Positions 1 through 62,596 of a stretch of DNA of 64,000 bases are shown piece after piece. The notes below the pieces were generated by a model. It saw nothing but the letters and a program-made list of their open reading frames with translations. It made no database searches and was not told where the DNA came from. The translations under genes and the position numbers were made by a program. Numbering within the stretch: the stretch's first letter is position 1; each line of letters opens with the position of its first letter. The DNA lies in NCBI GenBank assembly GCA_004322205.1, contig SCSN01000008.1, forward strand, positions 18,370 through 82,369. The letters run 5' to 3'. Origin of the DNA: Patescibacteria group bacterium (lineage in GTDB: Bacteria; Patescibacteriota; Minisyncoccia; Phycocordibacterales; Zambryskibacteraceae).

Positions 1-32
1 TTATGTATCTCATGGGGGGTATACTGAAATGA

Positions 33-2260: not shown

Positions 2261-2487
2261 CCCGTTAGAAGCAGGTCGCGGTCAGCACTTCCTGCATATA
2301 GTTATTTTGATAAATGTTTCTGCTTAATTTCATATTTTACCAAAGCATTTATTGAAACTGCGACCGCCCCGCCTGCCATCGCCTAATGCACAAATGTAAG
2401 CTATATAGATTGTAGTGTAAATATGTCATTTTCTACAAAATACCACTATTATCGCTCTGGCATTGGCGGGCAGGGGCTTCTAACGGA
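2260..2487. repeat. MITE-like intergenic element bounded by 13-bp inverted repeats (TCCCGTTAGAAGC ... GCTTCTAACGGA)
   Basis: Left repeat at 2260-2272 and inverted copy at 2476-2487, with an AT-rich interior. The same repeat pair bounds a second element at 37379-37506. Confidence 0.45.
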
Positions 2488-2499
2488 GCTCGTGAACAA

Positions 2500-4350
2500 C
2501 TAAACGCCAAGCACTACAGGGATGACGATAGGGCGCTTGGCGGTTTTTTGGAAGAGAAAACGGCTGACCGCGTCGTTGACGTTTGCTTTGACGAAGTCGA
2601 AGTTAATGGGGTTCATGCCGAAGGTAGCTTTCTCGATCGTTCGCTTAATAATGAGCCGGGTTTGCGAAAGCAGTTCCTGTGATTCGCGCAGATAGACAAA
2701 GCCGCGCGAAATTATATCCGGAGATTTCTTGAGCTTGCCGGTTTTGATGTCAATGGTTGCGACAATGACGACAAAGCCGTCCTCGGCAAGCATCTTGCGG
2801 TCTCGCATCACCACTTCTTGGACGTTGCCGATGGAAAAACCGTCAACCAGGACAGGGCTAGAGGGCGCCGATTCTTTGAGTTTGACGAGTCTTTTACCCT
2901 CATCTTGAATCTCGATGACCATGCCGTTGTCGGGGACGATGATATTCTCCGGTGTTATTCCGAGAGAGAGCGCCACTTCTTCGTGAACGCGGAGCATGTA
3001 GTGGGTGCCGTGGATGGGGATAAAGAAACGCGGATGAATTTTTCTGTGAAGCCATTCGAGCTCGCCGCGGTTGCCGTGCCCGGTTGAGTGAATATAGACG
3101 TCGGAGGTGCGGTAGTGGATGATCTTGGCCCCTTGCCGAGCAAGGTTGTCTTTGAGTTTCTGCACCGCCCTTTCATTGCCGGGAATGATGGAGGAAGAAA
3201 GAAGAACCGTATCATTTTTAGTGATCTTGACGTACTTGTGGCTTTTGAGAGACATTCGCATCAGGGCGGCGAATTCGTCGCCTTGGGCGCCGGTGGCGAG
3301 AATAATGATTTTGTCTGGAGGGTATCTCTCCATCACTTCTGGCATAATAATGGTGTCAGGTTTAACTTTGAGTCTGCCGACCTTAGCGGCGATTTCAACG
3401 TTGGTTTTCATGCTGCGCCCTTCAACCACCACCTTTTTGTCGTAGCGCTCGGCGCTCTCGATAATTGCAACGACGCGCTCAATTTGTGAGGCGAAGGTGC
3501 CGATGATAAGGCGGCGCTTGGTGGTGCGAATGATTTCGTCCAAATTTTTGTGGACGAGACTCTCCGGAGTGGACCAGCCGGGATTTTCAACATTAGTTGA
3601 GTCCATCATCAGGAGAAGAACATTTGCATTTTCAAAAATTGAATACTCTTCCTCCTCTGCTTCCGTTGGCACACCATCGACGTGATCAAGCTTGATGTCG
3701 CCGGGATTAACGATCCAGCCTTGGGGAGTCTCAATGATAATGCCCATCGATTCAGGGATGGTATGGGTAACGGCAAAAAAGCGCACCTTGAGATTGCCGA
3801 CGCTGATATGGTCCTCTTTTTCAACCATCCGCAGATCAAGAGCGGGAAGATGAGGAAATTCCTCCTGGCGCTTGCGAATCATGATGGAAGTGAGAAAGCG
3901 GGTGTAGATGGGAGGGTTGCCGATCCGGTTCATTATGTAAGGGATAGCGCCGATATGGTCGAGGTGTCCGTGGGTGATGATGAGGGCGCGCACTTTGTCT
4001 TTGCGCTCTTCGAGGTATTTGGTGTTGGGCAGGATATAGTCAATGCCCGGCGTGTCTTCCTCGCGGAACTGAAAACCGGCATCAAGGACAATAATGTCGT
4101 TGCCGTACTCGACTACCGTCATATTCTTGCCGATTTCCTCAACTCCGCCCAGGGGGATGATGCGGATACTGTCGCCAGCCGGAGGAATCTTTTCTTCTTC
4201 CGGTCGTGTTGCGATCTGCCTCTGCGTCCCACGCATCGGACGGCGCGGACGCCGGAGCATTCCCATGCCGCGCACTCGAAGGTTTGGAGCTTGGCGGGGG
4301 CGCAGCCGGGTGATGTGTTGAGAGAAAGAATCTTGGTGTTGTGGGTTCAT
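2500..4350 (-). CDS. rnj: ribonuclease J
   Basis: Metallo-beta-lactamase HxHxDH motif (ITHGHLDHIG) with beta-CASP and RNase J C-terminal regions. Also carries a basic N-terminal extension of roughly 60 aa. Confidence 0.9.
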   Translation of the reverse strand: MNPQHQDSFSQHITRLRPRQAPNLRVRGMGMLRRPRRPMRGTQRQIATRPEEEKIPPAGDSIRIIPLGGVEEIGKNMTVVEYGNDIIVLDAGFQFREEDTPGIDYILPNTKYLEERKDKVRALIITHGHLDHIGAIPYIMNRIGNPPIYTRFLTSIMIRKRQEEFPHLPALDLRMVEKEDHISVGNLKVRFFAVTHTIPESMGIIIETPQGWIVNPGDIKLDHVDGVPTEAEEEEYSIFENANVLLLMMDSTNVENPGWSTPESLVHKNLDEIIRTTKRRLIIGTFASQIERVVAIIESAERYDKKVVVEGRSMKTNVEIAAKVGRLKVKPDTIIMPEVMERYPPDKIIILATGAQGDEFAALMRMSLKSHKYVKITKNDTVLLSSSIIPGNERAVQKLKDNLARQGAKIIHYRTSDVYIHSTGHGNRGELEWLHRKIHPRFFIPIHGTHYMLRVHEEVALSLGITPENIIVPDNGMVIEIQDEGKRLVKLKESAPSSPVLVDGFSIGNVQEVVMRDRKMLAEDGFVVIVATIDIKTGKLKKSPDIISRGFVYLRESQELLSQTRLIIKRTIEKATFGMNPINFDFVKANVNDAVSRFLFQKTAKRPIVIPVVLGV

Positions 4351-4365: not shown

Positions 4366-6117
4366 TTAAAAGCGAGTGAAAATCTTCCAGACTTTGCTTG
4401 TCTCAATGTACCAGCGGTTGATTGCAGAGAATCGCTCGCTCCCCGTAACTAGGGTGCCGAGGGTAATGCCTTTAATGTTTCGAGGGATGAGGTAGAGGAA
4501 TTGCGGCGAGTAGACAAAGACCACGGGACGATCATTCCCAATTTCTTTCTCGAGCGCAGCGTAGGTTTCGAGGCGCTTTTCTCTGTCGGAGAGCGTTCGG
4601 GCAGTCTCCAGGAGCTTATCAGCCTTGCTGTTGACGTAGAGAGCGATGTTGAGGCCCGGATCGTTGCGCTGGGACGAGTGCCAGAAAGGGTAGAGATCAA
4701 TGTCTCTGCCGACCACTTCACCGAAAAAGAGGGCATCGTAGCGGCGCGGCCGAATGACGTCCTGGTTGAGGTCGCCGGTTTCATAAACCAGAACGGTGAC
4801 GTTGGCTCCGAGGTCATTCCACTGCTCTTGGATGCTTTTGGCGGCCAGTTTAAGTTCCGGTGCGTCCCCGGTGGCGAGCGAGAAAGCCAGAGAGAAATTT
4901 TCCTTCTTGGTTTTTTTCTCGTAAATGCCGTCGACCCCTTTCTTCCAGCCGTTCTTCTCGAGGAGCGCCCGAGCTTCTTCTTTCGAGTGTTCTTTCTCCG
5001 AGAGCTTACCCACACTCCCTCCTGTCAGCGCCGCGGGAATTGGCCCTTCAAGAACGCTGCCGTATCCGGAGAGTACGTCGCGCACGATTTTATCTTTGTC
5101 GAGAGCCAGGTCGAGAGCCAGGCGCACTTCTTTGTTGGTAAAAAGGTGAGCCTGATTTTGGTTGAAGAAGATGCCGAAGATGCGCGGCAGGTCGCCGACT
5201 GCAACCGGAGCGCCGGAGCGGGAAAGCTCGCTAACGAGGCTCGGAGAAACGCCGGCAACACTCTCGACACCGCCGCTCTTGTAGGCTTTCACCGCCTCGC
5301 TCTCATTGGCGAAGAATTTGAAGGTTAGTGTCCTAATGTAGGGCTCGCCTAGAGTGTAGCGGTCCGAGGCGCGCAAGCGGTATTCGTTGGGGATGCCGGC
5401 GGAGTTGCGCCGTGAGCTGGCGACACGGTAAGATCCGGAACCCACCGGCTCGATGTTGTACTGGCTGAAAGGGAATTCGTCAGCCGCCACGTTCTTCCAA
5501 ATATGGCTGGGAAGAATGCCCACGGTCATGTTTTCAAGAAACGGCGCGTAAGGCTGTTTTAAGGTAAAGCGAATCTCTCGCTCGCTCACTTTCTCCACCA
5601 CCACTCCATCCCAATTGCCGCGCTTTGGACTTTTTACTGCCGGGTCCTGAATTTTCTCTATGGTGAATTTGATGTCATCGGCGCTGACAAGTTGCCCGTC
5701 GTGGAAGCGGGCGTTTGGCTTGAGGAAAAAAGTATAGGTCTTCCCGTCCTCAGAGATTTCGTAGCGTTCGGCGAGATCGGGGATGAGTTCGCCATCGGGA
5801 GTCGGGCGCAGCAACCCCGAGTAGACGAGGAAAGAGAGATCACGATCCGCATCGGAGAGCGCCAGGACGGGGTTGACGAAGCGAGGAGAGCCGATGATTC
5901 CTTCGGTTAGGTGCCCGCCGCGCTCAGGGACTTCGACGAGAAAGTTGCCGTTTGTTTTGAGGACAAGTCCTATTCCAGAAAGTACGAAAATTGAAGAGAG
6001 CGTCCAAAAAGCCAGCCGTTCGGCAGGTGAAAACGACTGAACTGCCCGCTCGATGGCGCGTTCTCCCGGCAGACGGAATTTCTTATAGAGCAATTTCTGG
6101 AGAATTTCACTCTTCAC
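4366..6117 (-). CDS. ABC transporter substrate-binding protein, family 5 (peptide/nickel type)
   Basis: 583-aa protein with an N-terminal membrane anchor and overall resemblance to OppA/DppA-like solute-binding proteins. Confidence 0.7.
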   Translation of the reverse strand: MKSEILQKLLYKKFRLPGERAIERAVQSFSPAERLAFWTLSSIFVLSGIGLVLKTNGNFLVEVPERGGHLTEGIIGSPRFVNPVLALSDADRDLSFLVYSGLLRPTPDGELIPDLAERYEISEDGKTYTFFLKPNARFHDGQLVSADDIKFTIEKIQDPAVKSPKRGNWDGVVVEKVSEREIRFTLKQPYAPFLENMTVGILPSHIWKNVAADEFPFSQYNIEPVGSGSYRVASSRRNSAGIPNEYRLRASDRYTLGEPYIRTLTFKFFANESEAVKAYKSGGVESVAGVSPSLVSELSRSGAPVAVGDLPRIFGIFFNQNQAHLFTNKEVRLALDLALDKDKIVRDVLSGYGSVLEGPIPAALTGGSVGKLSEKEHSKEEARALLEKNGWKKGVDGIYEKKTKKENFSLAFSLATGDAPELKLAAKSIQEQWNDLGANVTVLVYETGDLNQDVIRPRRYDALFFGEVVGRDIDLYPFWHSSQRNDPGLNIALYVNSKADKLLETARTLSDREKRLETYAALEKEIGNDRPVVFVYSPQFLYLIPRNIKGITLGTLVTGSERFSAINRWYIETSKVWKIFTRF

Positions 6118-6181
6118 GGTGTAGCGAGCCCTCGCGGGCGGTATTGTGAGATTGCGATCTCGGAGAAGTTAAATAAGGAGA

Positions 6182-6406
6182 TTAAATGATGAGAGCGAGA
6201 AAAGAAGAGAGGGCAAAGAGAACGGCGACAGCGATAGTTGCGCGGAATAAGAATTTCTCTGCCCCTCGGCGAGTATAGTGAGTGCTGAACCCTTCTGCTC
6301 CGAAGGCGCTTCCCAGTCCCGCCTCCGATCTCTGCAAAAGAACTCCCCCGATGAGGAGGAGGGAGAGGAGAATCTGAATGTAGGGAAGGAGAGCAGAAAT
6401 ACCCAT
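6182..6406 (-). CDS. secG: preprotein translocase subunit SecG
   Basis: 74 aa with two TM segments and the SecG-like LLQRSEAGLGSAFGAEG...RRGAEKFL core. Confidence 0.7.
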   Translation of the reverse strand: MGISALLPYIQILLSLLLIGGVLLQRSEAGLGSAFGAEGFSTHYTRRGAEKFLFRATIAVAVLFALSSFLALII

Positions 6407-6500
6407 GAAGATAGTATACAGTTCTCCATAGAGTTGGCAAGCTCGTAATCTTTAGCGATTTTAGGCCTTAGCCGCAGTATATTTTGAATGTGGAGAATTA

Positions 6501-6529
6501 TTGACAAAAAGTTTAAGTATGATATAATC
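6501..6529 (+). promoter_or_regulatory. consensus sigma70-type promoter (TTGACA-17-TATAAT)
   Basis: TTGACA at 6501-6506, a 17-nt spacer, TATAAT at 6524-6529. It drives the GC-rich ORF at 6596. Confidence 0.5.
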
Positions 6530-6595
6530 GAATAAGATAGTATTTAGAGCATCAGTTTCACACCCACCACACCCACGTTGTGGGAAGGAGAATTT

Positions 6596-6922
6596 ATGAG
6601 TAGCGAAGCGGTTTCTGTGCCCGCACCGGGGCGCAATGAGCTCTTCGAGACCATCGAGGTCTTGGAAAGGGCCGTCCGCCACTCCGAGATTTCCATGGTG
6701 GAGCTCTCGGAGCGTCTCAGGGACTGTGTGGCGGAGGCCTATCGCCGCCACGACCGAGCGTGCTGGACAAAGAAGTTCGCCGAGCGCCGCTTCTGGGAGC
6801 GGCGAGCGATCCGTCTAGCGACCGTCACGCGAGATGAGATCAGGTCGCAGGTCCGGCAAGCCCTCGATGCTCGTCGACGTAAGAAAACGAAGGAAGGCCG
6901 CAGCGTTCAGGCCACAGCCTGA
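6596..6922 (+). CDS. hypothetical protein (GC-rich ORFan with canonical SD)
   Basis: Start placed at the ATG at 6596, preceded by AAGGAG 7 nt upstream. GC content is visibly higher than flanking genes. I see no recognisable domain. Confidence 0.5.
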   Translation: MSSEAVSVPAPGRNELFETIEVLERAVRHSEISMVELSERLRDCVAEAYRRHDRACWTKKFAERRFWERRAIRLATVTRDEIRSQVRQALDARRRKKTKEGRSVQATA

Positions 6923-6993
6923 ACTTGTCGGTCACGGGCCCCGCTCGCGCGTACGCAAGTACATGCGCGAACGGAGCTCTTTGTTTTTCGTTA

Positions 6994-7022
6994 TTGACAG
7001 CTAAAGAAACGGCGTATACTAT
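6994..7022 (+). promoter_or_regulatory. putative groES promoter (TTGACA-17-TACTAT)
   Basis: TTGACA at 6994-6999, 17-nt spacer, TACTAT at 7017-7022, about 36 nt upstream of the groES ATG. Confidence 0.45.
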
Positions 7023-7058
7023 AATGCCGTATTTTTTTACCAACCAACTTCACTTTTT

Positions 7059-7394
7059 ATGAAGAAAAAGAGAGCTAATAAAGACAAGCCGGTAAAATCT
7101 TCCGTGGGTATGATTCCGCTTTGGGATCGGGTGCTCATAAAGGAGGAGGAGACGGCAGCCGAGGGAAAGCGTGAATCCGGAATTTATATCCCTGAAACAG
7201 TGAAGGAAGATCGCGGAACAAAACAAGGCAGAGTTATCGCTGTCGGAGAAGGAAAATATGAGAACGGCAAACTCGTTCCTCTCAAAGTAAAGGTCAGTCA
7301 AACCGTTCTCTTTCAGTGGGGAGATAAAGTTACTTTTCGCGGCGAAGAGTACTACATTGTGCGCGAAAGCGAAATTCTTGCGATTATTAGGTGA
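7059..7394 (+). CDS. groES: co-chaperonin GroES (10 kDa chaperonin)
   Basis: Contains MIPLWDRVLIKEE...GRVIAVGEGK...VLFQWGDKV, the classic Cpn10 pattern. The true start may be the internal ATG at 7110. Confidence 0.9.
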   Translation: MKKKRANKDKPVKSSVGMIPLWDRVLIKEEETAAEGKRESGIYIPETVKEDRGTKQGRVIAVGEGKYENGKLVPLKVKVSQTVLFQWGDKVTFRGEEYYIVRESEILAIIR

Positions 7395-7442
7395 ATCAAA
7401 GAACGGAGCGACTATGATTTTCATACTCACTTAGTTCGTTAA

Positions 7443-9098
<1,656 letters not shown>

Positions 9099-9102
9099 AA
9101 GC

Positions 9103-9135
9103 TTTTTGGCTTTCGGCCGAGAGCTTTTTAGCAGG
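9103..9135 (+). terminator. putative intrinsic terminator after groEL
   Basis: Imperfect hairpin around the TCGGCCGA palindrome, followed by a TTTTT tract. Confidence 0.45.
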
Positions 9136-9149
9136 AATTAAAAATAATA

Positions 9150-9182
9150 GATAAAAAGAACCTCTCACTCTTCGGTGAGAGG
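9150..9182 (-). terminator. putative intrinsic terminator of the minus-strand HTH/HEAR gene
   Basis: Hairpin CCTCTCAC-TCTTCG-GTGAGAGG overlaps the stop codon and is followed on the minus strand by a T-rich run. Confidence 0.45.
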
Positions 9183-9788
9183 CTCGCATTTGTGTTCTCC
9201 TCCCTTTCTGTTTGGTTTCAGTCCGGCGGCGGTCTGCGCCGCGCGCAGACTTCCAAAGGAACTGTAATAGTCCTCTGCCCAGAACTTACCAAGCTCGTCA
9301 ATCTCCCTCTCGCTCGGAGTGTGACCAAGTTTCAGGGCGAGCACTCGTAAGTCTTCCCGCATAACTTCGCGCCTTAGAGCTTGATTCCGCCACCTCCGTA
9401 GCGAGAAGAGTCTCTCCACCGCCTCTGTGATGCCAAACTCCAGCATCATTTTCCTAAGAGAAAAGTTCTTCACGCCGCCCCGCCCCTTTCTCTTGAGGGC
9501 TTTTTGCCAAGCATGGAGCGATGTTATCTCCGAGTTCTCTCTTAATGTCCGGATGGCGGGTAGCGGGTCTTTCGGCCAGTTGGGCTTTGAATAGACACTT
9601 CCTGTCTTCCTCACGAGCTGTCTTACCCTCTCCCTACTTAACCCTCCCAGAAGATCGCCAAGCTCCTCAAGAGTGTATTGCCCGCTTTCGTAGAGGGACC
9701 TGATGGCGAAGAGCTCTTGGGGACTTCTTCTCTCGCTACTGCCCTGAAGGCTTCTTGCGGTAATCACTACAATGTCTCTCTTGTACAC
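9165..9788 (-). CDS. DNA-binding protein: sigma-70 region-4-like HTH plus homing-endonuclease-associated repeat (HEAR)
   Basis: The N-terminal block YTLEELGDLLGGLSRERVRQLVRK resembles sigma70 region 4. The C-terminal block LALKLGHTPSEREIDELGKFWAEDYYSSFGSLRAAQTAAGL matches the HEAR repeat pattern. GTG start with AAGGAG 8 nt upstream. The gene is GC-rich. Confidence 0.55.
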   Translation of the reverse strand: MYKRDIVVITARSLQGSSERRSPQELFAIRSLYESGQYTLEELGDLLGGLSRERVRQLVRKTGSVYSKPNWPKDPLPAIRTLRENSEITSLHAWQKALKRKGRGGVKNFSLRKMMLEFGITEAVERLFSLRRWRNQALRREVMREDLRVLALKLGHTPSEREIDELGKFWAEDYYSSFGSLRAAQTAAGLKPNRKGGEHKCEPLTEE

Positions 9789-9934
9789 TGTATTCTCCTT
9801 TCAGTTCTGTTAGAACTCTAACCTTTTTACCCTTGACGTCAATAATTGAGTATAGCCATTTCGGTTGCTGGCTGGTGTCTTTCAGAAATTTACGAAAGGT
9901 GATAAACTTCGCTAAATAGAAATAAGAAAAAACT

Positions 9935-24144: not shown

Positions 24145-24248
24145 AGCCTAAAAATAGGAGTAGATTTGGGCACATAATTCTATTAACAAACTATAAGTTT
24201 GGGTGTATGATGTTAAGTAGGTAGAACCTTGAGAAAGCTACTTGTATT

Positions 24249-24299
24249 TATGTACAGCTTTGAGAGTGGTTCCTCGAACTTCTTTCCAAGCTGTACATA
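24249..24299. promoter_or_regulatory. nested palindrome (12-bp arms TATGTACAGCTT/AAGCTGTACATA enclosing GTTCCTCGAAC), candidate operator
   Basis: Perfect 12-bp inverted arms separated by 27 bp that themselves contain the GTTC-CTC-GAAC palindrome. Lies about 70 nt upstream of the GC-rich ORF at 24367. Confidence 0.35.
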
Positions 24300-24366
24300 A
24301 CAGGCCCGCTCTAGGTCCCGGCATTTGGTCGGAGCTTACGGGTGAGCCACAAACAAGGAGAAAGTC

Positions 24367-24984
24367 ATGACCGCCAAGGCCGTGACAACCGCGCAGTTAG
24401 AGCAGATCCGCAAGATGGCGAAGGAGAAGGGCGTCAGCCGCGACCAGTTCCAGCTGGGGCTCGACAACGGAATGTTCGCACGCACCCTCGACGAGCTCAT
24501 CGTCGGCAAGGTGACGGAAACACCAACGGGCCTCTTCCGCCTCGCCGTGGACTGGGGTCGGACGACCGAGGAGATGGTCCGGGCGTGCCAGTACGACTGT
24601 GCCAACCCGGATATCACCGAGGAACACTTCCCCCGGCCGCGCACGAGCGGCGTCGTGAAGGGCGACTACAAGCTCTTTCACTTCAACCGCAATATCTCAT
24701 CGGACCAGGCTGTCCGCGAGATACGCGCCGAGGGCTTCGAGCTTACCGGAGCGCACGAGATCCTCGTCTTCAGGGAGAAGTTCCCCGAGGAGCAGCGGAA
24801 GTTCACCATCGTTGGCCTCGGCGATCCCCTCTGGCGGCGGGACCGGTACGGCTACCGGCACGTGGTTGTGCTCCGCAGGCACGAGGCGCGCCGCTCCGCT
24901 GACCTGACCCTCTGGGAGGTCGTCTGGCCTCCGCTCTACCGCTTCCTCGCCCGTCGCCTGCCTGCCGGACAGGCAGGCAAGTAG
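24367..24984 (+). CDS. hypothetical protein (GC-rich ORFan with canonical SD)
   Basis: 205 aa, AAGGAG 5 nt upstream, very GC-rich by eye, followed by its own terminator. I see no recognisable domain. Confidence 0.5.
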   Translation: MTAKAVTTAQLEQIRKMAKEKGVSRDQFQLGLDNGMFARTLDELIVGKVTETPTGLFRLAVDWGRTTEEMVRACQYDCANPDITEEHFPRPRTSGVVKGDYKLFHFNRNISSDQAVREIRAEGFELTGAHEILVFREKFPEEQRKFTIVGLGDPLWRRDRYGYRHVVVLRRHEARRSADLTLWEVVWPPLYRFLARRLPAGQAGK

Positions 24985-25030
24985 GACCTGGGTCCTAGGA
25001 AAACGGAGCTTCTGGAATTCTAGACCCTCG

Positions 25031-25062
25031 GCCCGCGTGTCTAACGATGCGCGGGCTTTTGC
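25031..25062 (+). terminator. rho-independent terminator
   Basis: GCCCGCG-loop-CGCGGGC followed by TTTTGCT. Confidence 0.6.
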
Positions 25063-27403: not shown

Positions 27404-27431
27404 TTGACAGAAAACACTGATATGCTATAAT
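27404..27431 (+). promoter_or_regulatory. consensus promoter TTGACA-16-TATAAT
   Basis: TTGACA at 27404-27409 and TATAAT at 27426-27431. No ORF follows, only a GC-rich structured region. Confidence 0.5.
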
Positions 27432-27437
27432 TAGTTG

Positions 27438-27795
27438 GAGATCAGTTCGGGGAGGTAAGTAAGCCGCAAGGCCGAAATTCCCCTTCGAGCGTAAGTCCTT
27501 AGGTTGCTCTATTCGTCGGAGCGCCGGGCAGCAAGGTGGGGTCCTCTCTTCTAACGGTGCGTTTGTGTAGGAGATGGTAAGTTATCGGCCTGACGCGGCA
27601 GCCGGTTCGGCGCCCGCGCCCAGTGCGTCCAGCCTAACAAAGAGGGCGGGACGGATGAACGGAGCCCCCGCGGGGCACATCCTCTGGAGTGTATCGTTCC
27701 ACTCCCCGGTAACTAGCCAAGTCTAGACTCTCCCACGCAAACGTGCTGGGGCCTCGTCGCAGTCGTAGTTGACCGCGGCGGGGCCTCTTTGTTTT
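27438..27795 (+). ncRNA. candidate structured ncRNA of about 360 nt (GC-rich; identity unresolved)
   Basis: Sits between a consensus promoter and a GC hairpin plus T-tract (GGGGCCTC...CTTTGTTTTTATT). Contains many GNRA-closed hairpins such as GCC-GCAA-GGC. No credible ORF in any frame. Confidence 0.35.
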
Positions 27796-27873
27796 TATTA
27801 TATTCTGTATTGTGCTTTACTGTCACTGTACTAGAGTACTAGAAATTTAATATCTTAATATCCCAGCAGTAGT

Positions 27874-27901
27874 CTTAGTATATCATATATGATGCATTAA
27901 G
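27874..27901. repeat. palindrome family member 1 (CTTAGTATATCATATATGATGCATTAAG, imperfect)
   Basis: Shares the ATCATATATGAT core with the copies at 28518 and 32649. Confidence 0.5.
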
Positions 27902-28416: not shown

Positions 28417-28517
28417 TCGGGGTGCAGGGCTTTCGGCAAGGTTTGAACGTAAAGATCGAAGCGCGAAAATTTCGCGGGAAACACAGAAAAAGCAAGAAAC
28501 CATGAAACTCTCCTTTC

Positions 28518-28543
28518 TTAGTCTATCATATATGATAGACTAA
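28518..28543. repeat. palindrome family member 2 (TTAGTCTATCATATATGATAGACTAA, perfect 26 bp)
   Basis: Perfect palindrome about 100 nt upstream of rpmE. Confidence 0.55.
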
Positions 28544-28650
28544 GCGTGCAAAAGACAAGAAAGTTTAAGAAAACTGTTGGATTCGCGGCGATAGGTGTAG
28601 GTCAAGTGCCACCCTTGCTTTTTATTTTAAGATTGTTATATTCAGCTCGC

Positions 28651-32232: not shown

Positions 32233-32580
32233 ATGATGACTTCTAGAAAATTCCAGCGTACCAAGGAAGACTTCACCTGCGAGAGGTGCGGTTTCTTTGT
32301 ACGCGGGAGCGGCTACACCAATCACTGTCCGCAGTGTTTGTGGAGTAAGCACGTTGACGTGAATCCCGGCGACCGCGAGGCGCGATGTCAAGGACTCATG
32401 GAACCCGTAGGCGTGGAACTCAAGGGCGGAGAATACACCATTCTCCATCGCTGCGTCTCTTGCGGTTTTGAGAAGCGGAACAAGGCGGCGAAGGACGATA
32501 ACTTCACGCCATCCTTCAGCCAACCGCCGGAATTTTTGATAAGTAGGTTCCCCCCAGAGGCGGGCAGGCGAGCGCAGTGA
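32233..32580 (+). CDS. RNHCP-domain zinc-ribbon protein
   Basis: CERCG ... YTNHCPQC ... CVSCG cysteine pairs with the (R/T)NHCP motif. AGAGGT RBS 7 nt upstream, and an extended -10 (TGTTATAAT) at 32127-32135. Confidence 0.55.
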   Translation: MMTSRKFQRTKEDFTCERCGFFVRGSGYTNHCPQCLWSKHVDVNPGDREARCQGLMEPVGVELKGGEYTILHRCVSCGFEKRNKAAKDDNFTPSFSQPPEFLISRFPPEAGRRAQ

Positions 32581-32648
32581 TAAAGATACTCCACGATTAG
32601 ACTTTCGGACAGAGCACCCACTTTTTGACTAACAAAAACGCTAAGTCT

Positions 32649-32672
32649 TAATGTATCATATATGATACATTA
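32649..32672. repeat. palindrome family member 3 (TAATGTATCATATATGATACATTA, perfect 24 bp)
   Basis: Between the RNHCP gene and the GH1 gene. Confidence 0.55.
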
Positions 32673-37378: not shown

Positions 37379-37506
37379 TCCCGTTAGAAGCTGCGAAAAT
37401 CGGACTTATAATAATATGTCAATGATGGTTCGATACAATCGAAAGAGGAATAATAATCTTAAAACTTCAAGCAGAAACAGCCAGTCCGTTTCCTGCTTCT
37501 AACGGG
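37379..37506. repeat. second copy of the MITE-like element (TCCCGTTAGAAGC ... GCTTCTAACGGG)
   Basis: Left repeat at 37379-37391, inverted copy at 37495-37506, which directly abuts the ATG at 37507. The interior is AT-rich and 128 bp long. Confidence 0.45.
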
Positions 37507-42467: not shown

Positions 42468-43040
42468 ATGAAGCTGGATGTCCCGTACTACTCCCAGTTC
42501 AAGGATGTGACTGACCCGGAGTGGAGGCTCAAAGCCTGCACCATAGCGAATCTCAAGATGGCGCTGGAATATGCTCTCGGCGCGCCGGCTCCTTCGATTG
42601 ATGAACTCATAAAAGAGGGATTGTTAATTAGAGGATATGGGCCGCATGGCTGGATTCACGACGCCATTGTCAATTTGGCTCACAATCACGGCGTGCCGGC
42701 CTATCGCGAGGAGTTTAGGTCGGTGGCGGTTGATACGGCGCGGTCGGAGTTTTCGAGAAGCAAATACGAAGACAGTCTTCTTTCCTACAGTCTTGAGAAA
42801 TTCAGAAAAAAGCTTTCCGCGGGCGCATTAGTCATTGCCTCAACGCCACGTAATTGGGCGCCAGATGGAAATTTTCACACCACTCTCCTTGTTGGTTATA
42901 AAGAGAAGAATGGTGCTTTAAGCGGTTTTTACTACCACGACCCCGACGCCCCAAACGAACCCAAGAAAGATCAGTTTGTTGATGTAGAAACGTTTAAGGA
43001 GTACTGGCGCCGTCTAGCGATATTTTTTGAAAAAGAATGA
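42468..43040 (+). CDS. peptidase C39-like (papain-fold) domain protein
   Basis: VPYYSQ ... CTIANL (catalytic Cys) ... H pattern of the C39_2/BtrH-like family. Confidence 0.6.
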   Translation: MKLDVPYYSQFKDVTDPEWRLKACTIANLKMALEYALGAPAPSIDELIKEGLLIRGYGPHGWIHDAIVNLAHNHGVPAYREEFRSVAVDTARSEFSRSKYEDSLLSYSLEKFRKKLSAGALVIASTPRNWAPDGNFHTTLLVGYKEKNGALSGFYYHDPDAPNEPKKDQFVDVETFKEYWRRLAIFFEKE

Positions 43041-43083
43041 GAGTTCTGGAATGCCCAGAACTCTCTTGATGGTTCGCTATAGA

Positions 43084-43533
43084 TCACTCGTCAGACAGAC
43101 GGCGGACTTCTGCCCGTACCCCCTCTAGGGTAGCGCCCGCGTCACTGAGTATCTGAGAGGCAAGCCCGCCGGTGTCTCGCATCAGACCGAGCAGGATATG
43201 TTCGGCGCCGATGTGGGCACAACCAAGATCACGAGCCTCGTCAGAAGCAAGTTCGAGAGCTACTCTAGTGCGGGTAGTATATGGGATGTCAAATGACAGA
43301 ATTGGTGACGCTCTACCGCCCAGGAGAGTTTCTCTGATCCTGCCCTCAATTCTCTCGAGATTGACGTTGAGATTGAGCAGAGCAGCCACTGCTACGCTGT
43401 TTTCCTCCCGAATCAAGGCGAGGAGAATGTGTTCGGTGCCAACGTACTCGCGGTGTAGCCTCACCGCCTCATATCTCGCGTTAACCAGAATTTTCCTGAC
43501 GCGATCGGTGAAACGGTCAAGAATCGATGGCAT
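43084..43533 (-). CDS. stand-alone Clp N-terminal (double Clp_N repeat) domain protein
   Basis: Two Clp_N repeats (GTEHILLALIRE ... and GAEHILLGLMRD ...). GGGGAG RBS. GC-rich. Confidence 0.75.
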   Translation of the reverse strand: MPSILDRFTDRVRKILVNARYEAVRLHREYVGTEHILLALIREENSVAVAALLNLNVNLERIEGRIRETLLGGRASPILSFDIPYTTRTRVALELASDEARDLGCAHIGAEHILLGLMRDTGGLASQILSDAGATLEGVRAEVRRLSDE

Positions 43534-43679
43534 CTCTCCCCCAGGGTGGAGTGTTGTATGATGTGCCTATCTTTTACGACTATATCATAAAGCTAACCTT
43601 TAGTCCAATAGTCCAAATTCTAAAGGGAGTCCTTGGAATTTCTTCGTCATTTACTCTCGTTTAAAGTATAGCAAAGCAA

Positions 43680-43724
43680 ACATAAAATGAAGAGGCCCGC
43701 TCCGACGTAACGTCGGAACGGGCC
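43680..43724 (-). terminator. intrinsic terminator of the minus-strand ORF 43742-44284
   Basis: GGCCCGCTCCGACG-TAA-CGTCGGAACGGGCC hairpin, with a T-rich run on the minus strand. Confidence 0.55.
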
Positions 43725-43741
43725 TTCCAGTGAACCAGTTG

Positions 43742-44284
43742 CTACGCGCGCGGGACGGCCAGACAGCAGCGCTGGCTGAAGGCGCCCACGAGCCAGCTCC
43801 AGTCGAGCTCCGGCGCCTCGCCGTAGCAGTGGAGCACAGGCACGCGGCGGTGGCCGAGCTCGTCCACCAGGACCGTCCCGGCGAACACCAGGATGCGGCC
43901 CTTCGCCTCCTTAGGTAGGAGCTCGGGGTGATCCCAGTGGAAGAGTGCGTCCCGATAGCCGAGACGGAGCCCCTTCTTCGCGCGGACAAGCATCTCCTCC
44001 CAGCGGATCCATTCTTCATCACTGCCGGTGAAGAACTCGGCAAGCGCGATTCCGCCGCCGTGGAAAGGAGCATCCTCCACGACTTCCCGGACCCAGTCCG
44101 GAAAACGAACAGCGACGACCATCTTCGCAAACTTCGCGAAGAGGCTCCTAGACTCGGGTCGGGAGAGGCGGTGGATATCCTCGTCAGATCCGCCCTCCTC
44201 CCGGATCGTCGCGACTAGTGTCTCGATGATACTCGTCGCGACGCCCATGCCGCTGACGACAGCGGCAACGTCTTTCTTAGACAT
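43742..44284 (-). CDS. hypothetical protein (GC-rich ORFan with canonical SD)
   Basis: 180 aa, AGGAGAAGAG RBS and its own terminator. The overlapping 43651-44130 frame is Arg/Ser-rich and looks like an off-frame artefact. Confidence 0.5.
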   Translation of the reverse strand: MSKKDVAAVVSGMGVATSIIETLVATIREEGGSDEDIHRLSRPESRSLFAKFAKMVVAVRFPDWVREVVEDAPFHGGGIALAEFFTGSDEEWIRWEEMLVRAKKGLRLGYRDALFHWDHPELLPKEAKGRILVFAGTVLVDELGHRRVPVLHCYGEAPELDWSWLVGAFSQRCCLAVPRA

Positions 44285-44621
44285 TTCTCTTCTCCTCGTT
44301 TAGGCTCGCCCCTCACCCTAGCGTCCGCTAGGGCCCCGGACTTGCCATTGGTTACAGCGCCTAAGACACGAGGTTTCGCATCCTAAGCGCTGCAACCAGT
44401 ATTTGCGTAGCGTAGATGGTAAGGTACTGAAAGATAATTCCATTATGTATTATATACCTCTAACTCAATCCTGTCAATACCTAGGAAATGGCTTGAGGAG
44501 TAGTTGAAAGTTGTCCGTTCTCACTCTTCCCTTCCTGACTTCAATTTGCTATAATTAGCTTGTAAAAATTGGCGTTTTTGAGCGTTTGCCCCGCCCAAAA
44601 AGAGGGCAATGTTTGTTTAAA

Positions 44622-46718
44622 ATGGCTGTCCAAAAATCAAAGATCAAAAAGAGTAAAGGTCAGGAGAAAGCCCCCGCAACTAAACGGGGACGTTATAGCG
44701 CTGAAGATATCACTGTTTTGGAGGGTCTTGAGCCGGTGCGCCGCCGTCCCGGAATGTACATTGGCACCACCGGCCCCGACGGTCTTCATCATTTGGTCTG
44801 GGAAATTTTTGATAATGCCCGCGATGAGGCGATGGCCGGTTTTGCCAATCGCGTCGAAGTCGCTCTGCTCCCGGGTAATCGGGTGCGGGTGACTGACAAC
44901 GGGCGGGGAGTGCCCGTTGACATTCACAAGCAGACCAAAGTCTCCGCTCTGGAGACGATTATGACTACTCTTCATGCCGGAGCAAAGTTCGGCGGCGGCG
45001 GATACAAGGTGGCCGGCGGTCTCCACGGCGTCGGCGCCTCGGTGGTTAATGCGCTTTCGGTCTGGATGAGAGCGGTGGTGCACCGCGACGGCGGGGAGTA
45101 TGTTCAGGAATACTCCCGCGGCAAGCGGAAGGGGGCGGTAAAGAAAGTTGGCCCTTCCAAGTTTGTCGGCACCGTTGTGATCTTCGAGCCGGATCCGGAG
45201 ATTTTTCCCGAAATTAGTTTTGATTACAACCGAATCGTCAATCACTTGCGCCAACAGGCGTATCTGGTCAAGGGTCTTCGCATTGTTATGATTGATGCTC
45301 GCGAGTATAAGGAAAAAATTGATGAGGATATTTTCTATCTTGCTGACCTTGGAGCGGAGATGCCTTCAACCACTTTTTATTTCGAGGGAGGTCTTCTTTC
45401 TCTGGTAAAGTTTTACAACCAGACGGAGAAACCGGTCAATAAAAACATCTTCTACGTTGAGAAAAAGCTCAATGAGTATGAATCTGTTGAGGTGGCGCTT
45501 CAGTACGTCGATGACATCTCTTCGCGCCTTATCCCTTTTGCCAATAACGTCTACAACTCTGAAGGTGGAACGCACGTCACCGGTTTCAAAACTGCTCTGA
45601 CGCGGACGCTCAACAACTATGCTCGCAAAAGCGGTTTGGCAAAAGACAATGGCGACAGCTTTACGGGAGACGATGTCTTGGAGGGGTTGACGGCGGTGAT
45701 TTCGGTCAAACTCCGCGAAGTGCAATTCGAAGGCCAAACCAAAGCAAAACTGGGCACGGTGGAGGCGCGGGGGATGGTGGAGAGCATCTTTGGCGACGCC
45801 TTTGAAGCGTTTCTTGAAGAAAATCCTGATGAGGCGAGAGCAATTTTGAATAAGGTTGTTTTGGCGCTTAAAGCCCGTAAAGCAGCCAAAGCGGCAAAAG
45901 ATTCTGTTCTGCGCAAGGGCGCGCTTGAAGGCATGACCCTTCCCGGCAAGCTGGCCGACTGCCAGTCACGCTCGGCAGAAGAGTCAGAGCTTTTCATTGT
46001 TGAGGGCGACTCTGCCGGCGGCACCGCCAAAATGGGACGTGACCGCCGTATCCAGGCGGTGCTGCCCTTGCGCGGAAAAATCTTAAACATTGAACGGGCG
46101 CGGCTCGATAAAATTCTCACCTCCGAGCAGATAAAAAATTTGGTGGTGGCGCTCGGCACAGCCATCGGCGACACTTTTGACATTGGCAAACTCCGTTATC
46201 ACAAAGTTATTATCGCCACCGATGCTGATGTTGATGGGGCGCATATCCGCACGCTTCTCTTGACTCTACTCTACCGTTTCTTCCGGCCGCTGATTGAAGT
46301 TGGTCATGTCTATATTGCCCAGCCTCCGCTCTATAAAATAAAAAAGGGCAAGGATGTTTTTTACGCTTTTTCTGATGAAGAGAAAATGAAAATTGTAGGC
46401 AAAGACGCTACTGCAGAAGAACAAAGAGAGACAGAAACCGAAGAAAGTGAAGAAGAACCTATTGAAGACGAAGCTAAACAAGCTGACAGACCGAAAGGCT
46501 CTAAAGTTTCCATTCAGCGCTATAAGGGTTTGGGCGAGATGAATGCCGAAGAACTCTGGGAGACAACAATGGATCCCGAGCGGAGAACCTTAAAACAAGT
46601 CACGATTGAAGACGCACAAGAAGCGGATAGGGTCTTTGACGTTCTTATGGGTACTGATGTACCTGCAAGGAAGAGCTTTATTCAGACAAACGCCAAACTG
46701 GCAAATCTGGACATTTAA
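44622..46718 (+). CDS. gyrB: DNA gyrase subunit B
   Basis: GHKL ATPase blocks (GLHHLVWEIFDNARDE, GGLHGVGASVVNALS), the TOPRIM EGDSAGG and a C-terminal tail. Start trimmed to MAVQKSK. Confidence 0.95.
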   Translation: MAVQKSKIKKSKGQEKAPATKRGRYSAEDITVLEGLEPVRRRPGMYIGTTGPDGLHHLVWEIFDNARDEAMAGFANRVEVALLPGNRVRVTDNGRGVPVDIHKQTKVSALETIMTTLHAGAKFGGGGYKVAGGLHGVGASVVNALSVWMRAVVHRDGGEYVQEYSRGKRKGAVKKVGPSKFVGTVVIFEPDPEIFPEISFDYNRIVNHLRQQAYLVKGLRIVMIDAREYKEKIDEDIFYLADLGAEMPSTTFYFEGGLLSLVKFYNQTEKPVNKNIFYVEKKLNEYESVEVALQYVDDISSRLIPFANNVYNSEGGTHVTGFKTALTRTLNNYARKSGLAKDNGDSFTGDDVLEGLTAVISVKLREVQFEGQTKAKLGTVEARGMVESIFGDAFEAFLEENPDEARAILNKVVLALKARKAAKAAKDSVLRKGALEGMTLPGKLADCQSRSAEESELFIVEGDSAGGTAKMGRDRRIQAVLPLRGKILNIERARLDKILTSEQIKNLVVALGTAIGDTFDIGKLRYHKVIIATDADVDGAHIRTLLLTLLYRFFRPLIEVGHVYIAQPPLYKIKKGKDVFYAFSDEEKMKIVGKDATAEEQRETETEESEEEPIEDEAKQADRPKGSKVSIQRYKGLGEMNAEELWETTMDPERRTLKQVTIEDAQEADRVFDVLMGTDVPARKSFIQTNAKLANLDI

Positions 46719-53223: not shown

Positions 53224-53284
53224 GCGGTTATTATACCCCCCGGGGGTATTTAGTCAAGAAAATTTTTTAGCCGCTGTGGATAAT

Positions 53285-55674: not shown

Positions 55675-55748
55675 ATATCTATCGTAGCATACCCTCGCTT
55701 TTTACCAAGCGCGTGATAGGATGCCACTGGAACTAAACGGAGGCTCTA

Positions 55749-56090
55749 GTGCCGACTTATCAGTCTGTCGCCGAACTTGTTAACGACTTTGCGTTCAGGT
55801 TCGACTTCTCCCAGGAGGAAATGGACAGGATATTCGTTCAGACGCTGGCCACTAGCAGCGCGAAGGGTCCTGATGACCGCGCCTACGACAGCCGCGAGTC
55901 TGTCGAGAGTGGGTTGATCCAACTCCGGAGCGTTCTTCTGTCCTTTCTTGCCCCCGGAGTGGCGCGCAACTGGCTGCAGCAAGTCAGGCACGGCAATGAA
56001 AATATCACTGGCAAGGAGATGCTTCTTGCCGGCAGGATTGCCGAAGTTATTGCCATAGCTCTGTCGGCGCAAGCCAACCGCGGTTGGTGA
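55749..56090 (+). CDS. hypothetical protein (GTG start, GGAGG RBS)
   Basis: 113 aa. The antisense 55746-56147 frame is Arg/Gly-rich and less protein-like. Followed by a hairpin terminator. Confidence 0.4.
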   Translation: MPTYQSVAELVNDFAFRFDFSQEEMDRIFVQTLATSSAKGPDDRAYDSRESVESGLIQLRSVLLSFLAPGVARNWLQQVRHGNENITGKEMLLAGRIAEVIAIALSAQANRGW

Positions 56091-56120
56091 GGTCCCGTGC
56101 ATCTTGCGGGACCTTTTTCG
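56091..56120 (+). terminator. intrinsic terminator
   Basis: GGTCCCG-TGCATCTTG-CGGGACC followed by TTTTTCG. Confidence 0.6.
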
Positions 56121-56121
56121 T

Positions 56122-59292: not shown

Positions 59293-59372
59293 GGAGAGGA
59301 GGGTGCATGAATTATATCAAAGCACTTCCTGCTCTTGATCCATTAATCCAAAGAGCGGTATATAATGGCAGT

Positions 59373-60276: not shown

Positions 60277-60309
60277 ATAATTCTCTGTCATACGATATAC
60301 TGCCAGACT

Positions 60310-60549: not shown

Positions 60550-60572
60550 TCCGCGGCAAGCACATTTCCACT

Positions 60573-62415: not shown

Positions 62416-62565
62416 TCACTCGCATCCTCTCTTTGTCTCAGTTTCAGGCGGTTTCGCCCGGGAGTCGTTGGGCGGCCGCAGAAGCCATCGCCCCGTGAGG
62501 TAGAGCACGTAGGCGATTACAACGACGATCCAGATAACGATGACAGCCCGGCTTTCGTCAGACAT
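62416..62565 (-). CDS. small hydrophobic membrane peptide (49 aa)
   Basis: MSDESRAVIVIWIVVVIAYVLYLTGRWLLRPP... GGAGGA RBS 5 nt upstream, with a TTGACG-16-TATCAT promoter at 62597-62624 on the minus strand. Confidence 0.4.
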   Translation of the reverse strand: MSDESRAVIVIWIVVVIAYVLYLTGRWLLRPPNDSRAKPPETETKRGCE

Positions 62566-62596
62566 AATCGCTCCTCCGTTGTGCGTATCTATTTTA

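Follow-up and report, generated by a model that had tools for sequence, protein, structure and literature searches.

GC-rich genes led by Shine-Dalgarno sites among SD-less core genes of a Patescibacteria contig, two of them related to DGR variable proteins

Patescibacteria are a large, mostly uncultivated bacterial branch in which the start of translation is poorly described, and the locus presented here raises the question of why a few short, GC-rich genes preceded by strong Shine-Dalgarno (SD) sites should lie among core genes that have none. In SD-poor bacteria, such as the Bacteroidetes, unstructured AU-rich leaders drive initiation and few genes retain an SD. The window (the whole 64-kb stretch of DNA that was analysed, part of a 118-kb contig) is alike in that its core genes are SD-less, with leaders that are AU-rich or absent, and a strong SD is found in a small minority of genes; it differs in belonging to another phylum and in that the genes of its SD minority are GC-rich and accessory rather than ribosomal or regulatory core genes. 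Two initiation regimes, one of leaderless or SD-less core genes and one of SD-led accessory genes, adjoin in this window. We consider it somewhat probable that the GC-rich, SD-led signature is a mark of the flexible gene pool in these Patescibacteria genomes rather than of one high-GC donor.

The original prediction named eight ORFs as SD-led and, by eye, GC-rich, and since they were picked beforehand, the split in SD strength described here confirms that choice but does not test it independently. For 63 curated genes, the region from -20 to -3 was scored for pairing to a canonical anti-SD (ACCUCCUUU), which is assumed because the 16S 3' tail is absent from the window; the 64 kb hold no rRNA gene, and no 16S 3' end was found in any related locus examined. 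Against this assumed anti-SD, the eight named ORFs occupy ranks 4-11 of the 63 genes, with dG of -7.1 to -9.5 kcal/mol. Just three more genes score as well or better, namely 50125(-), 33 and 53223; the first is operon-internal, with a score in the range of the named ORFs or above, and the apparent SDs of the other two are artefacts, each a G-run that immediately precedes the -10 box of a leaderless gene. The other 52 are all weaker than -6.5, and in many core genes TATAAT or TATACT stands 6-10 nt ahead of the ATG, or the leader is AU-rich and SD-less. At a threshold of dG<=-7, the window contains 8/8 named ORFs against 3/55 other genes (Fisher p=4e-8), so the claim that core genes lack the SD carried by the named short ORFs is upheld, and in this window SD motifs are not equally common before core genes. 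Base composition and codon usage are not uniform either. GC averages 59.0% in the named ORFs (range 53.7-65.4) and 48.1% in the 55 others (sd 4.2; Mann-Whitney p=1.5e-8), with GC3 of 0.70 and 0.51, respectively (p=9e-7), which bears out the claimed GC-richness, though the strong outliers are just three of the eight, the ORFs at 6596, 24367 and 43742 (63-65%, z 3.6-4.2); the remaining five are mildly enriched (z 1.3-2.4). RNA structure was considered and rejected as the cause of GC-richness, as their coding-sequence fold z-scores (-0.2 to -3.7) and the core-gene values overlap. In 48 related loci, dG<=-7 is reached at 7/367 genes, and SD strength does not correlate with GC across these 367 genes, so the signature is not general to Patescibacteria accessory genes.

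The first of the three strong outliers, which we refer to as cassette 1, lies in the gap between secG and groES.

6501..6528, + strand: promoter of cassette 1, TTGACA, 16-nt spacer, TATAAT (12/12), with TG ahead of the -10 box
6585..6590, + strand: SD of cassette 1, AAGGAG, 5 nt from the ATG, dG -9.4
6596..6922, + strand: ORF6596, 108 aa, 63% GC, GC3 0.73, no family
6943..6988, + strand: putative terminator of cassette 1, an imperfect GC-rich hairpin then a T-run, from MFE fold and sequence

The leader is ~60 nt long and has a CCCAC-GTT-GTGGG hairpin immediately 5' of the AAGGAG. With its putative terminator, the stretch from 6501 to 6988 is a self-contained accessory expression unit in a secG-groES hot spot. 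The gene order SBP-secG-gap-groES-groEL-gap-lemA is found in 45 loci, with gaps of 94-3260 nt, and the secG-groES gap is empty (94-259 nt) in 17 of the 45. The closest relative, L069, has a near-identical promoter at this site, plus an SD and a terminator, framing an ORF of 189 aa that is unrelated to ORF6596 and has 60% GC in a 44% GC locus; the secG-groES cargo of other relatives is mostly neither GC-rich nor SD-led. The only repeat flanking cassette 1 is the 9-bp TTATTGACA, which doubles as the -35 region of two promoters. ORF6596 has no relatives in the protein database, JGI metagenome contigs, IMG/VR or GenBank phages, and no similarity to Avd, RT (reverse transcriptase) or the same-site ORF of L069. 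Searches of Pfam, PHROGs, NCBIfam and PADLOC gave no match for the ORFs 6596, 24367, 43742, 55749, 62565 and 28503(-) or, where included, for the L069 ORF. ORF6596 is an orphan still. Private promoters and hairpin terminators, which had been claimed for most of the eight ORFs, were recovered by scan in part: promoters at 6596, 24367, 43742 and the Clp_N ORF, and terminators at the last three but not at 6596, where the hairpin and T-run seen in the fold escaped the simple terminator scan.

The other two strong outliers belong to one protein family, whose members elsewhere reveal what kind of gene they are.

24183..24211, + strand: promoter-like site of cassette 2, TTAACA, 17-nt spacer, TATGAT (10/12)
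24297..24369, + strand: marginal match to the leader model R1 (19.2 bits, E=0.063), including the SD
24355-24360, + strand: SD of cassette 2, AAGGAG, dG -8.3
24367..24984, + strand: ORF24367, 205 aa, 65% GC, GC3 0.87, homologue of DGR variable proteins
25030..25057, + strand: intrinsic terminator of cassette 2, 12-bp stem then T-run
44449..44477, - strand: promoter of cassette 3, TTGACA, 17-nt spacer, TATAAT (12/12)
44282..44352, - strand: structured leader of cassette 3, a three-segment hairpin, ~10 nt, SD and ATG; conserved
44297-44292, - strand: SD of cassette 3, GAGGAG
43742..44284, - strand: ORF43742, 180 aa, 64% GC, GC3 0.80
43693..43725, - strand: intrinsic terminator of cassette 3, 15-bp stem

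ORF24367 follows an untranslated leader of ~150 nt with an 11-bp hairpin at 24250-24298 and joins a helical N-terminal domain to a C-type-lectin-fold domain; ORF43742 is its divergent paralogue, which has an internal deletion and whose C-terminal motif is eroded. A profile of the family retrieves 7,417 clusters, for which there is no Pfam model, so that the label ORFan, apt for 6596, is wrong for these two. The family was placed at 63 genome loci, about three-quarters of them labelled Patescibacteria or CPR candidate phylum; IMG/VR yielded a single match and GenBank phages yielded none. The 3' end of the family gene has a second copy downstream in at least 14 genomes, with differences confined almost wholly to adenines, and Avd and RT lie beyond this copy. 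At the GTDB family loci, the last ~130 nt are repeated 300-430 nt downstream with 81-90% identity, and 279/324 of the differences between variable region (VR) and template repeat (TR) fall at TR adenines, or ~96% without one misaligned pair. These repeats, which differ mostly at adenines, together with the Avd and RT, identify the family as DGR variable proteins; a TR is absent within ~6 kb at 28/53 family loci. The C-terminal domain has a C-type-lectin or FGE-like fold that contains the variable region, and ORF24367 and ORF43742 both align full-length with proteins that have a VR/TR pair.

Roux et al. 2021 (PMC8144416), who cite Paul et al. 2017, describe the DGRs of Patescibacteria/CPR as the 'clade 2' cellular DGRs, with targets that have no recognisable Pfam or transmembrane domain. 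ORF24367 and ORF43742 agree with these CPR targets in this respect, in full-length alignment and in the C-type-lectin-fold C-terminal domain, but differ in that the 64-kb window holds no TR, RT or Avd and in the partly lost scaffold of ORF43742; within the window, neither ORF's 3' end is repeated, and five RTs and three Avds of family loci, used as tblastn queries, found no counterpart. On the grounds of sequence, the two ORFs are TR-less copies (within the window) of a CPR DGR variable-protein family. The VR-equivalent of ORF24367 spans ~24830-24960, with a 9-bp GC hairpin at 24956-24978, and the 13-mer TACCGCTTCCTCG is common to ORF24367 and the TR/VR ends of the family locus L010, the two being candidates for target-recognition elements of the GC-hairpin and IMH-like kind; the difference of this region from heterologous TRs at ~67% of A sites and ~33% of other sites is suggestive only. 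Resemblance to TvpA (Treponema denticola, 2y3c), the FGE-type fold and the C-terminal domain of Bdellovibrio Bd2740 (8oks) is at 8-15% identity, no PDB chain matches the C-type-lectin-fold family protein at the sequence level, and ORF24367, with 205 aa and no signal peptide by eye, is much smaller than the structurally characterised proteins. As a gain in annotation, two 'hypothetical' genes join a DGR variable-protein family of thousands of members.

The signature of ORF24367 and ORF43742 extends to this family. Family genes have 57.1% GC against 47.0% in their flanks (higher in 49/53; p=7e-10) and are GC-rich in hosts of 32-65% GC, tracking host GC weakly (slope 0.38). This excess is limited to the coding sequence and to third codon positions, and is uniform along the gene. 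With starts chosen by the profile, blind to SD, a strong SD precedes 14/34 family genes and 41/414 neighbours (p=8e-6). The RT genes of the same loci have 30-52% GC (13/14 at 30-48%), matching or undershooting their hosts, and no SD is visible at the putative starts of the 14 RTs. A GC-rich family in such unlike hosts, beside an RT that does not share the signature, is not explained by a single high-GC donor. Adenine mutagenesis was also rejected as the cause, as T at third positions is no less depleted than A, no gradient runs toward the VR, and codon positions 1 and 2 match those of neighbours. The contrast between target and RT raises the question of how composition is kept up inside one retroelement cassette, and in the literature searched we found no mention of GC3-richness, SD enrichment or a leader hairpin that sets DGR targets apart from RTs. 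If genome-wide, this contrast in GC3 and SD, along with the leader hairpin, would help to detect such genes. Lateral transfer alone leaves the opposite compositions of target and RT within one retroelement cassette unexplained.

A leader hairpin with SD is kept in a subset of the family and covaries across distant members, with compensatory changes at 10/13 pairs of the model R1. This model was built from eight sequences, among them the leader of cassette 3, which scores 73 bits by construction. In 723 kb, R1 matches family gene starts only, save one match (E=0.27) inside the window. The leader of cassette 3 also aligns end to end with RAGATH-10 (RF03147), including a GAGGAG-like 3' end, but its 22 bits fall short of the gathering score, 41.2, and place it outside this RNA family, and the homologous leader of L058 has no RAGATH-10 match; Rfam returned nothing for the 'cttctaacggg' leaders or for the 27.3-28.7 kb gap. 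The family's SD enrichment and covarying leader hairpin lend some support to the earlier suggestion of a possible distinct translation-initiation class.

In the explanation that we favor, that of a flexible gene pool, the family would retain its G/C-ending codons and SD, and in a subset its leader hairpin, whatever the host, and elsewhere the reverse transcriptase would rewrite its 3' end from the template repeat. Modules may travel laterally among Patescibacteria, carrying their own expression signals. The SD may be functionally coupled to GC-richness, in that a GC-rich, structure-prone mRNA would be barred from the AU-rich or leaderless route and so would need anti-SD pairing. The suggestion that these genes are accessory cargo fits the position of the cassettes between core genes and the empty secG-groES and groEL-lemA gaps of some relatives. 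They share with genomic islets and acquired ORFans an atypical GC and codon usage, an intergenic position where relatives have an empty site, and their own expression signals. They depart from them in that no donor, mobility gene, tRNA or att site was found at the cassettes, flanked by neither integrase or transposase nor a clear target-site duplication; closest relatives in a higher-GC lineage of donor-matching composition were not found either, and the atypical composition of the DGR family persists in many hosts and excludes the adjacent RT.

A less likely reading, though the best placed of the others, is that these genes are long-term residents forming a distinct class of translation and regulation, in which GC3, SD and hairpin are held by selection rather than by repeated transfer; such selection could serve, for example, conditional SD-dependent translation, mRNA stability or expression level. 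The conserved, covarying hairpin and SD of distant family members point this way, as do a GC3 excess that is purely synonymous, even through the coding sequence and ending with it, an RT in the same cassette that lacks the signature, and the frame of promoter, SD and terminator kept at the secG-groES site in two relatives. On the other hand, GC3 in the highly expressed core genes of the window is mildly raised (groEL, 0.58) or not raised (groES, L25, tsf), so general translational selection for G/C-ending codons is weak. The unrelated proteins of the set have no common known function, the weak dependence of family GC on host GC is what partial amelioration predicts, and the loci L007, L008 and L010, with targets 93-94% identical and RTs diverged to 77-79%, suggest exchange.

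Beside the flexible gene pool we tentatively place a more specific proposal, somewhat less probable than long residence, that the variable-protein genes of Patescibacteria DGRs are compositionally autonomous, being GC3-rich and led by SD and hairpin in any host while RT and Avd are host-like. Behind this would stand either the retroelement or an SD-dependent route of translation dedicated to such genes in cells that otherwise do without SDs; whole genes might be replaced, paralogues might undergo GC-biased conversion, or selection might act on synonymous sites. If this is true, being GC3-rich and SD-led would flag hypervariable or exchangeable effector genes, possibly including ORF6596 and its L069 counterpart.

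We infer that ORF6596 is translated, but with no homologue and a low-confidence model it may not be. That it is a non-coding RNA or a decaying remnant with an incidental AAGGAG, its long ORF reflecting the scarcity of stop codons in GC-rich DNA, seems unlikely to us. This would agree with the absence of homologues from every collection searched, with ORFs that overlap it in other frames and on the opposite strand, with a transcript that folds better than shuffles (z=-4.8), and with the AF2 model, whose three helices have a pLDDT of 60.6. A GC-rich unit at 27404-27796 likewise has a promoter and terminator without a convincing ORF. Set against this, codon-position composition (GC3 0.73 > GC1 0.64 > GC2 0.51; G1 0.38) agrees with the proposed frame but not with the alternative ones, the SD is at an optimal distance from the ATG, the fold z-score of the coding sequence by itself (-2.5) is within the core-gene range, and a long ORF with its own SD and ATG is present in the L069 counterpart too. 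The predicted protein is helical, with a basic C-terminal tail.

The other five SD-led ORFs are the mildly GC-enriched ones.

43039..43607, - strand: Clp_N cassette, promoter-like site 43607-43579 (9/12), GGGGGAG SD
43533-43084, - strand: Clp_N ORF, 149 aa, 55% GC, terminator 43065-43039
55739..56113, + strand: thrS-dnaE cassette, GGAGG SD, terminator-like hairpin
55749-56090, + strand: GTG-start ORF of the thrS-dnaE cassette, 113 aa, 57% GC, no family
9165..9800, - strand: HNH_repeat (homing-endonuclease-associated repeat) plus HTH ORF, 207 aa, 54% GC, AAGGAG SD
62416..62577, - strand: 49-aa ORF, 58% GC, GGAGGA SD
32233..32580, + strand: RNHCP-domain ORF, 115 aa, 56% GC, weak AGAGGT SD

The HNH_repeat plus HTH ORF occupies the groEL-lemA gap, which is empty (285-349 nt) in L121 and L069, and the 49-aa ORF has a hydrophobic stretch resembling a single membrane helix; none of the remaining cassette proteins occurs near genes of the 24367/43742 family or in groES loci. 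The Clp_N ORF has 43% identity to proteins of the mycobacteriophages Myrna and Phabba and matches phrog_35667. This likeness, the atypical GC and GC3, sites that are empty in relatives, and the best non-self match of ORF24367, labelled Proteobacteria on a contig of 58% GC, would all suit a recent import from a higher-GC organism or phage outside Patescibacteria, with donor codon usage and SD kept. We regard such an import as improbable, since the family lies mostly in Patescibacteria MAGs and is almost absent from the viral collections, in 14 genomes the GC-rich family gene stands beside an AT-rich RT and Avd that belong to one and the same element, the promoters and untranslated sequences are AT-rich like the host, and no donor for ORF6596 was found; for cassettes 2 and 3, the two best resolved, the higher-GC donor or phage that had been suggested is not supported, given where their family occurs and the host-like GC of the RT at family loci.

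The chimeric assembly raised in the original prediction, in which reads of a higher-GC organism were joined into a Patescibacteria contig, has nothing but the compositional contrast in its favor and is barely credible, given islands of 0.3-0.7 kb that each fit exactly within an intergenic gap and have host-like promoters, the same architecture in L069 and throughout the DGR family, and, effectively refuting it for three cassettes, independent Logan contigs of run SRR8426596 (which may derive from the same reads as the MAG) that span cassettes 1, 3 and 5 from junction to junction and match the window at 100% identity. Both junctions of the thrS-dnaE cassette are borne out by L151.

The GC-rich, Shine-Dalgarno (SD)-led genes of the window form a real pattern, which a known system, the diversity-generating retroelement (DGR), partly accounts for. 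We scored SD strength as the duplex energy (dG) of positions -20 to -3 against the canonical anti-SD, assumed here and not observed for this organism, across 63 window genes whose starts were curated by hand and are our own calls. The eight genes named in the original prediction take ranks 4-11 of the 63 (dG -7.1 to -9.5 kcal/mol), below an operon-internal gene, 50125(-), and two artefacts, the leaderless genes 33 and 53223, where a G-run directly 5' of the -10 box produces the score. dG is weaker than -6.5 in the remaining 52 genes, many of which carry TATAAT or TATACT 6-10 nt 5' of the ATG or an AU-rich leader. Across 48 related loci dG reaches -7 in 7 of 367 genes, rarer than the 5.4% seen at random window positions; the clade is essentially SD-free. 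Mean GC is 59.0% in the named ORFs versus 48.1% in the other window genes (p=1.5e-8; window, 49.2%), and mean GC at third codon positions (GC3) is 0.70 versus 0.51. The predicted contrast with SD-less core genes thus held, though it is graded, with only 6596, 24367 and 43742 being strong GC outliers (63-65% GC, z 3.6-4.2). By Pfam, ordinary core genes flank the cassettes:

ORF6596 and HNH_repeat ORF (9788, minus strand): order secG, 6596, groES-groEL, HNH_repeat ORF, lemA
ORF24367: between FAD oxidase and L25
Clp_N ORF (43533, minus strand) and ORF43742 (minus strand): between C39 peptidase and gyrB
ORF55749: between thrS and dnaE
ORF62565 (minus strand): between rnc and smc

Two window proteins are identical to the NCBI 'hypothetical protein' entries EPN83_01530 and EPN83_01630 [Patescibacteria group bacterium] of a 118-kb contig, and two tRNAs are the sole Rfam matches in the window. 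The cassette at 6501-6988 (cassette 1) comprises:

Promoter: TTGACA-16-TATAAT, 12/12 consensus
Leader: ~60 nt, with a small hairpin inside
SD: AAGGAG, 5 nt 5' of the ATG
ORF6596: 108 codons
3' end: imperfect hairpin, then a T-run, then the groES promoter; the terminator scan did not report the hairpin

The synteny SBP-secG-gap-groES-groEL-gap-lemA is kept across eighty metagenome groES loci. The secG-groES gap, measured in the 45 loci with secG upstream of groES, spans 94-259 nt in 17, which are empty sites holding only the two promoters; elsewhere it reaches up to 3260 nt, with varied cargo that is mostly neither GC-rich nor SD-led. In the closest relative, L069 (groEL 79% identical to that of the window), a promoter that hardly differs, an SD (GGAGG) and a terminator at 3130-3860 enclose a 189-aa ORF (60% GC, against 44% for the locus) that is unrelated to ORF6596 and has no family match. 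The expression frame of this site is thus conserved, whereas its GC-rich content differs between the two genomes.

ORF24367 and ORF43742 yielded only 9 and 3 relatives, respectively, in a word-indexed search. The aligned relatives have a common C-terminal motif (YDxxNxDITEExFP ... LFHFxRxISS ... PEEQRKxPIVGLG ... GxRxVPYL ... YRFLAVRK), and a profile search recovered 7,417 cluster representatives (E<=1e-10 for 4,599), none of the members matching Pfam. The description of the named genes as ORFans therefore applies to some of the eight but fails for others, such as these two. With each GTDB species represented by one genome, a scan placed the family in 63 loci, about three quarters labelled Patescibacteria or CPR candidate phylum, though some MAG labels may be unreliable; one MAG, C24_metabat.bin.189, holds at least five copies on five contigs (L038, L043, L044, L035, L051). 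The 3' end of the family gene recurs elsewhere within 26 loci, in ~16 of which as a single ~130-nt copy 300-430 nt downstream at 81-90% identity. Differences between this variable repeat (VR) and its template (TR) fall at adenines of the downstream copy in 279 of 324 cases (15 aligned pairs), or about 96% without one misaligned pair, and an Avd-like four-helix protein and a reverse transcriptase (RT) lie downstream. These features make up the DGR architecture and match a clade of DGRs that is restricted to Patescibacteria and has targets devoid of known domains (Roux et al. 2021, PMC8144416). Searches of the 64-kb window recovered no TR, RT or Avd, and about half of the family loci likewise have no TR within roughly 6 kb. 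ORF24367 retains TACCGCTTCCTCG as its conserved 3' end, with a GC hairpin of 9 bp after it; ORF43742 is internally deleted and its C-terminal motif is eroded. Both are new TR-less members of the target family. Several tandem VR-like repeats occur in each of L039 and L065. In family loci including L006-L020, conserved short CTTGG-type repeats (e.g., tcccttggaatcttggatccttggtcc) and then a GC hairpin lie 0-100 nt past the target stop, and ORF24367 shows a comparable string, ggtcctaggaaaac...agaccctcgg.

The GC-rich, SD-led signature is a property of this family. Family genes average 57.1 +/- 6.0% GC versus 47.0 +/- 6.5% in their flanks (range 32-65%), exceeding them in 49 of 53 loci (p=7e-10), with a slope on host GC of only 0.38. 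GC3 is 0.63-0.76 in each decile of the coding sequence, while flanking 100-nt windows have a GC of 0.37-0.49; the third-position frequencies of A, C, G and T are.13,.41,.29 and.17 versus.24,.24,.22 and.29 in neighbours, with no difference at first and second positions. When the protein profile guides the choice of start, 22 of 34 family genes have an SD core and 14 a strong SD, versus 41 of 414 neighbouring ORFs for the latter (p=8e-6). The pre-VR portion of the target gene has 51-62% GC in 14 complete cassettes (one exception at 36%), whereas the RT has 30-52% (13 of 14 at 30-48%), broadly follows the host and has no SD upstream of its putative start. The targets of L007, L008 and L010 (hosts 32-46% GC) are 93-94% identical overall and 69-75% identical at four-fold sites, versus 77-79% and 38-52% for their RTs. 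A footprint of adenine mutagenesis as the source of this split is ruled out by the GC3-by-decile and per-position base composition data.

A subset of the family has a common leader, GGCAAGYCCGGGG, a hairpin, GGGAUGAGGGGCGAGCC, ~10 nt, SD and ATG. A covariance model (R1) built from eight copies, the leader of ORF43742 being one seed, gave 15 matches at E<=1 in 723 kb, 14 directly upstream of family genes. These include new leaders at 33-75 bits and the marginal ORF24367 leader (19 bits); the other match, at window 60578-60674, is weak (E=0.27). Compensatory changes occur at 10 of 13 pairs in an alignment itself fitted to the model.

The cassettes are independent transcription units in variable intergenic sites, and at least two encode scaffolds of the DGR ligand-binding type. 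In that family it is the gene itself that carries the SD, the leader and the G/C-ending codons along, independently of both the host and the remaining retroelement parts. We infer that Patescibacteria exchange the cassette genes as a common pool, own expression signals included, and that the SD would offset a GC-rich mRNA unable to use the unstructured or leaderless route. The main rival holds that selection keeps the signature in resident genes, which would form a separate translation or regulation class. ORF6596 alone could still be a non-coding or decaying insert: it remains an orphan, with no family match or homologue in any collection searched and a three-helix AF2 model (pLDDT 60.6). Against that reading, coding-like periodicity is confined to its proposed frame (GC3 0.73 > GC1 0.64 > GC2 0.51). 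The proposed supply of cargo by a single higher-GC foreign donor is disfavoured, as both the taxonomy of homologues and the contrast between target and RT composition argue against it. Chimeric assembly, also raised originally, is essentially excluded, since small inserts lying exactly between genes, reproduced in two assemblies and paralleled in other genomes, are unlike a chimera: Logan contigs of run SRR8426596 are 100% identical to the window at 4976-9236, 43328-45930, 55322-56332 and 60003-62292, and three of these four span both junctions of the cassettes of ORF6596, ORF43742 and ORF55749, though the reads are possibly the MAG's own and Logan is an independent assembly, not independent data. 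Lateral transfer alone does not account for the opposite composition of target and RT inside one cassette. DGRs and domain-less targets in Patescibacteria are already known, and unusual GC across an entire DGR has been interpreted as indicating transfer (Wu et al. 2018, PMC5758913); in the part of the literature covered, we found no description of a compositional split between target and RT, of SDs enriched where the background is SD-free, or of the leader hairpin.

The Clp_N, HNH_repeat, RNHCP, 55749 and 62565 proteins do not co-occur with the DGR family in the fetched loci. The Clp_N ORF (149 aa) resembles Clp N-domains, including mycobacteriophage Myrna and Phabba proteins (43% identity); the HNH_repeat ORF, which also has an HTH, occupies the groEL-lemA gap, 285-349 nt in two relatives; the RNHCP ORF (32233) has its Pfam domain; and ORF55749 and ORF62565 (49 aa, hydrophobic) have no family match.

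Gene 49688-50125(-), with a very strong SD (gagaggagggagcggATG, dG -12.5) and ordinary GC (46%), is the sole core-like operon-internal case. A six-G run abuts the -10 box of leaderless genes 33 and 53223, at ~10-32(+) (GGGGGGTATACT) and 53224-53250(-) (GGGGGGTATAAT), mimics an SD in energy scans and may be a promoter element. The CU-rich dnaE leader at 59293-59320(-) (ccctcctctcc) resembles an anti-SD, not an SD. At 27404-27796(+), a TTGACA..TATAAT promoter (27404-27431) precedes a GC-rich ~360-nt transcript with a strong terminator, no convincing ORF and no Rfam match; its fold has a z-score of -3.6 and includes a long-range helix, and it may be a structured RNA of a new kind. The palindrome tagtctatcatatatgatagacta occurs at 27873-27893, 28516-28544 and 32646-32672, two copies flanking a ~620-nt GC-rich stretch (27.9-28.5 kb) with no coding periodicity on either strand, inside which an SD-led ORF is readable at 28503-28096(-). 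Finally, the leaders at 2261-2330(-) and 37437-37506(+) end in ...cctgcttctaacggg right before the ATG of two putative membrane proteins, and a similar string lies near 27546; with no Rfam match and a possible AGCAG/CTGCT stem, this could be a regulatory leader common to both genes.
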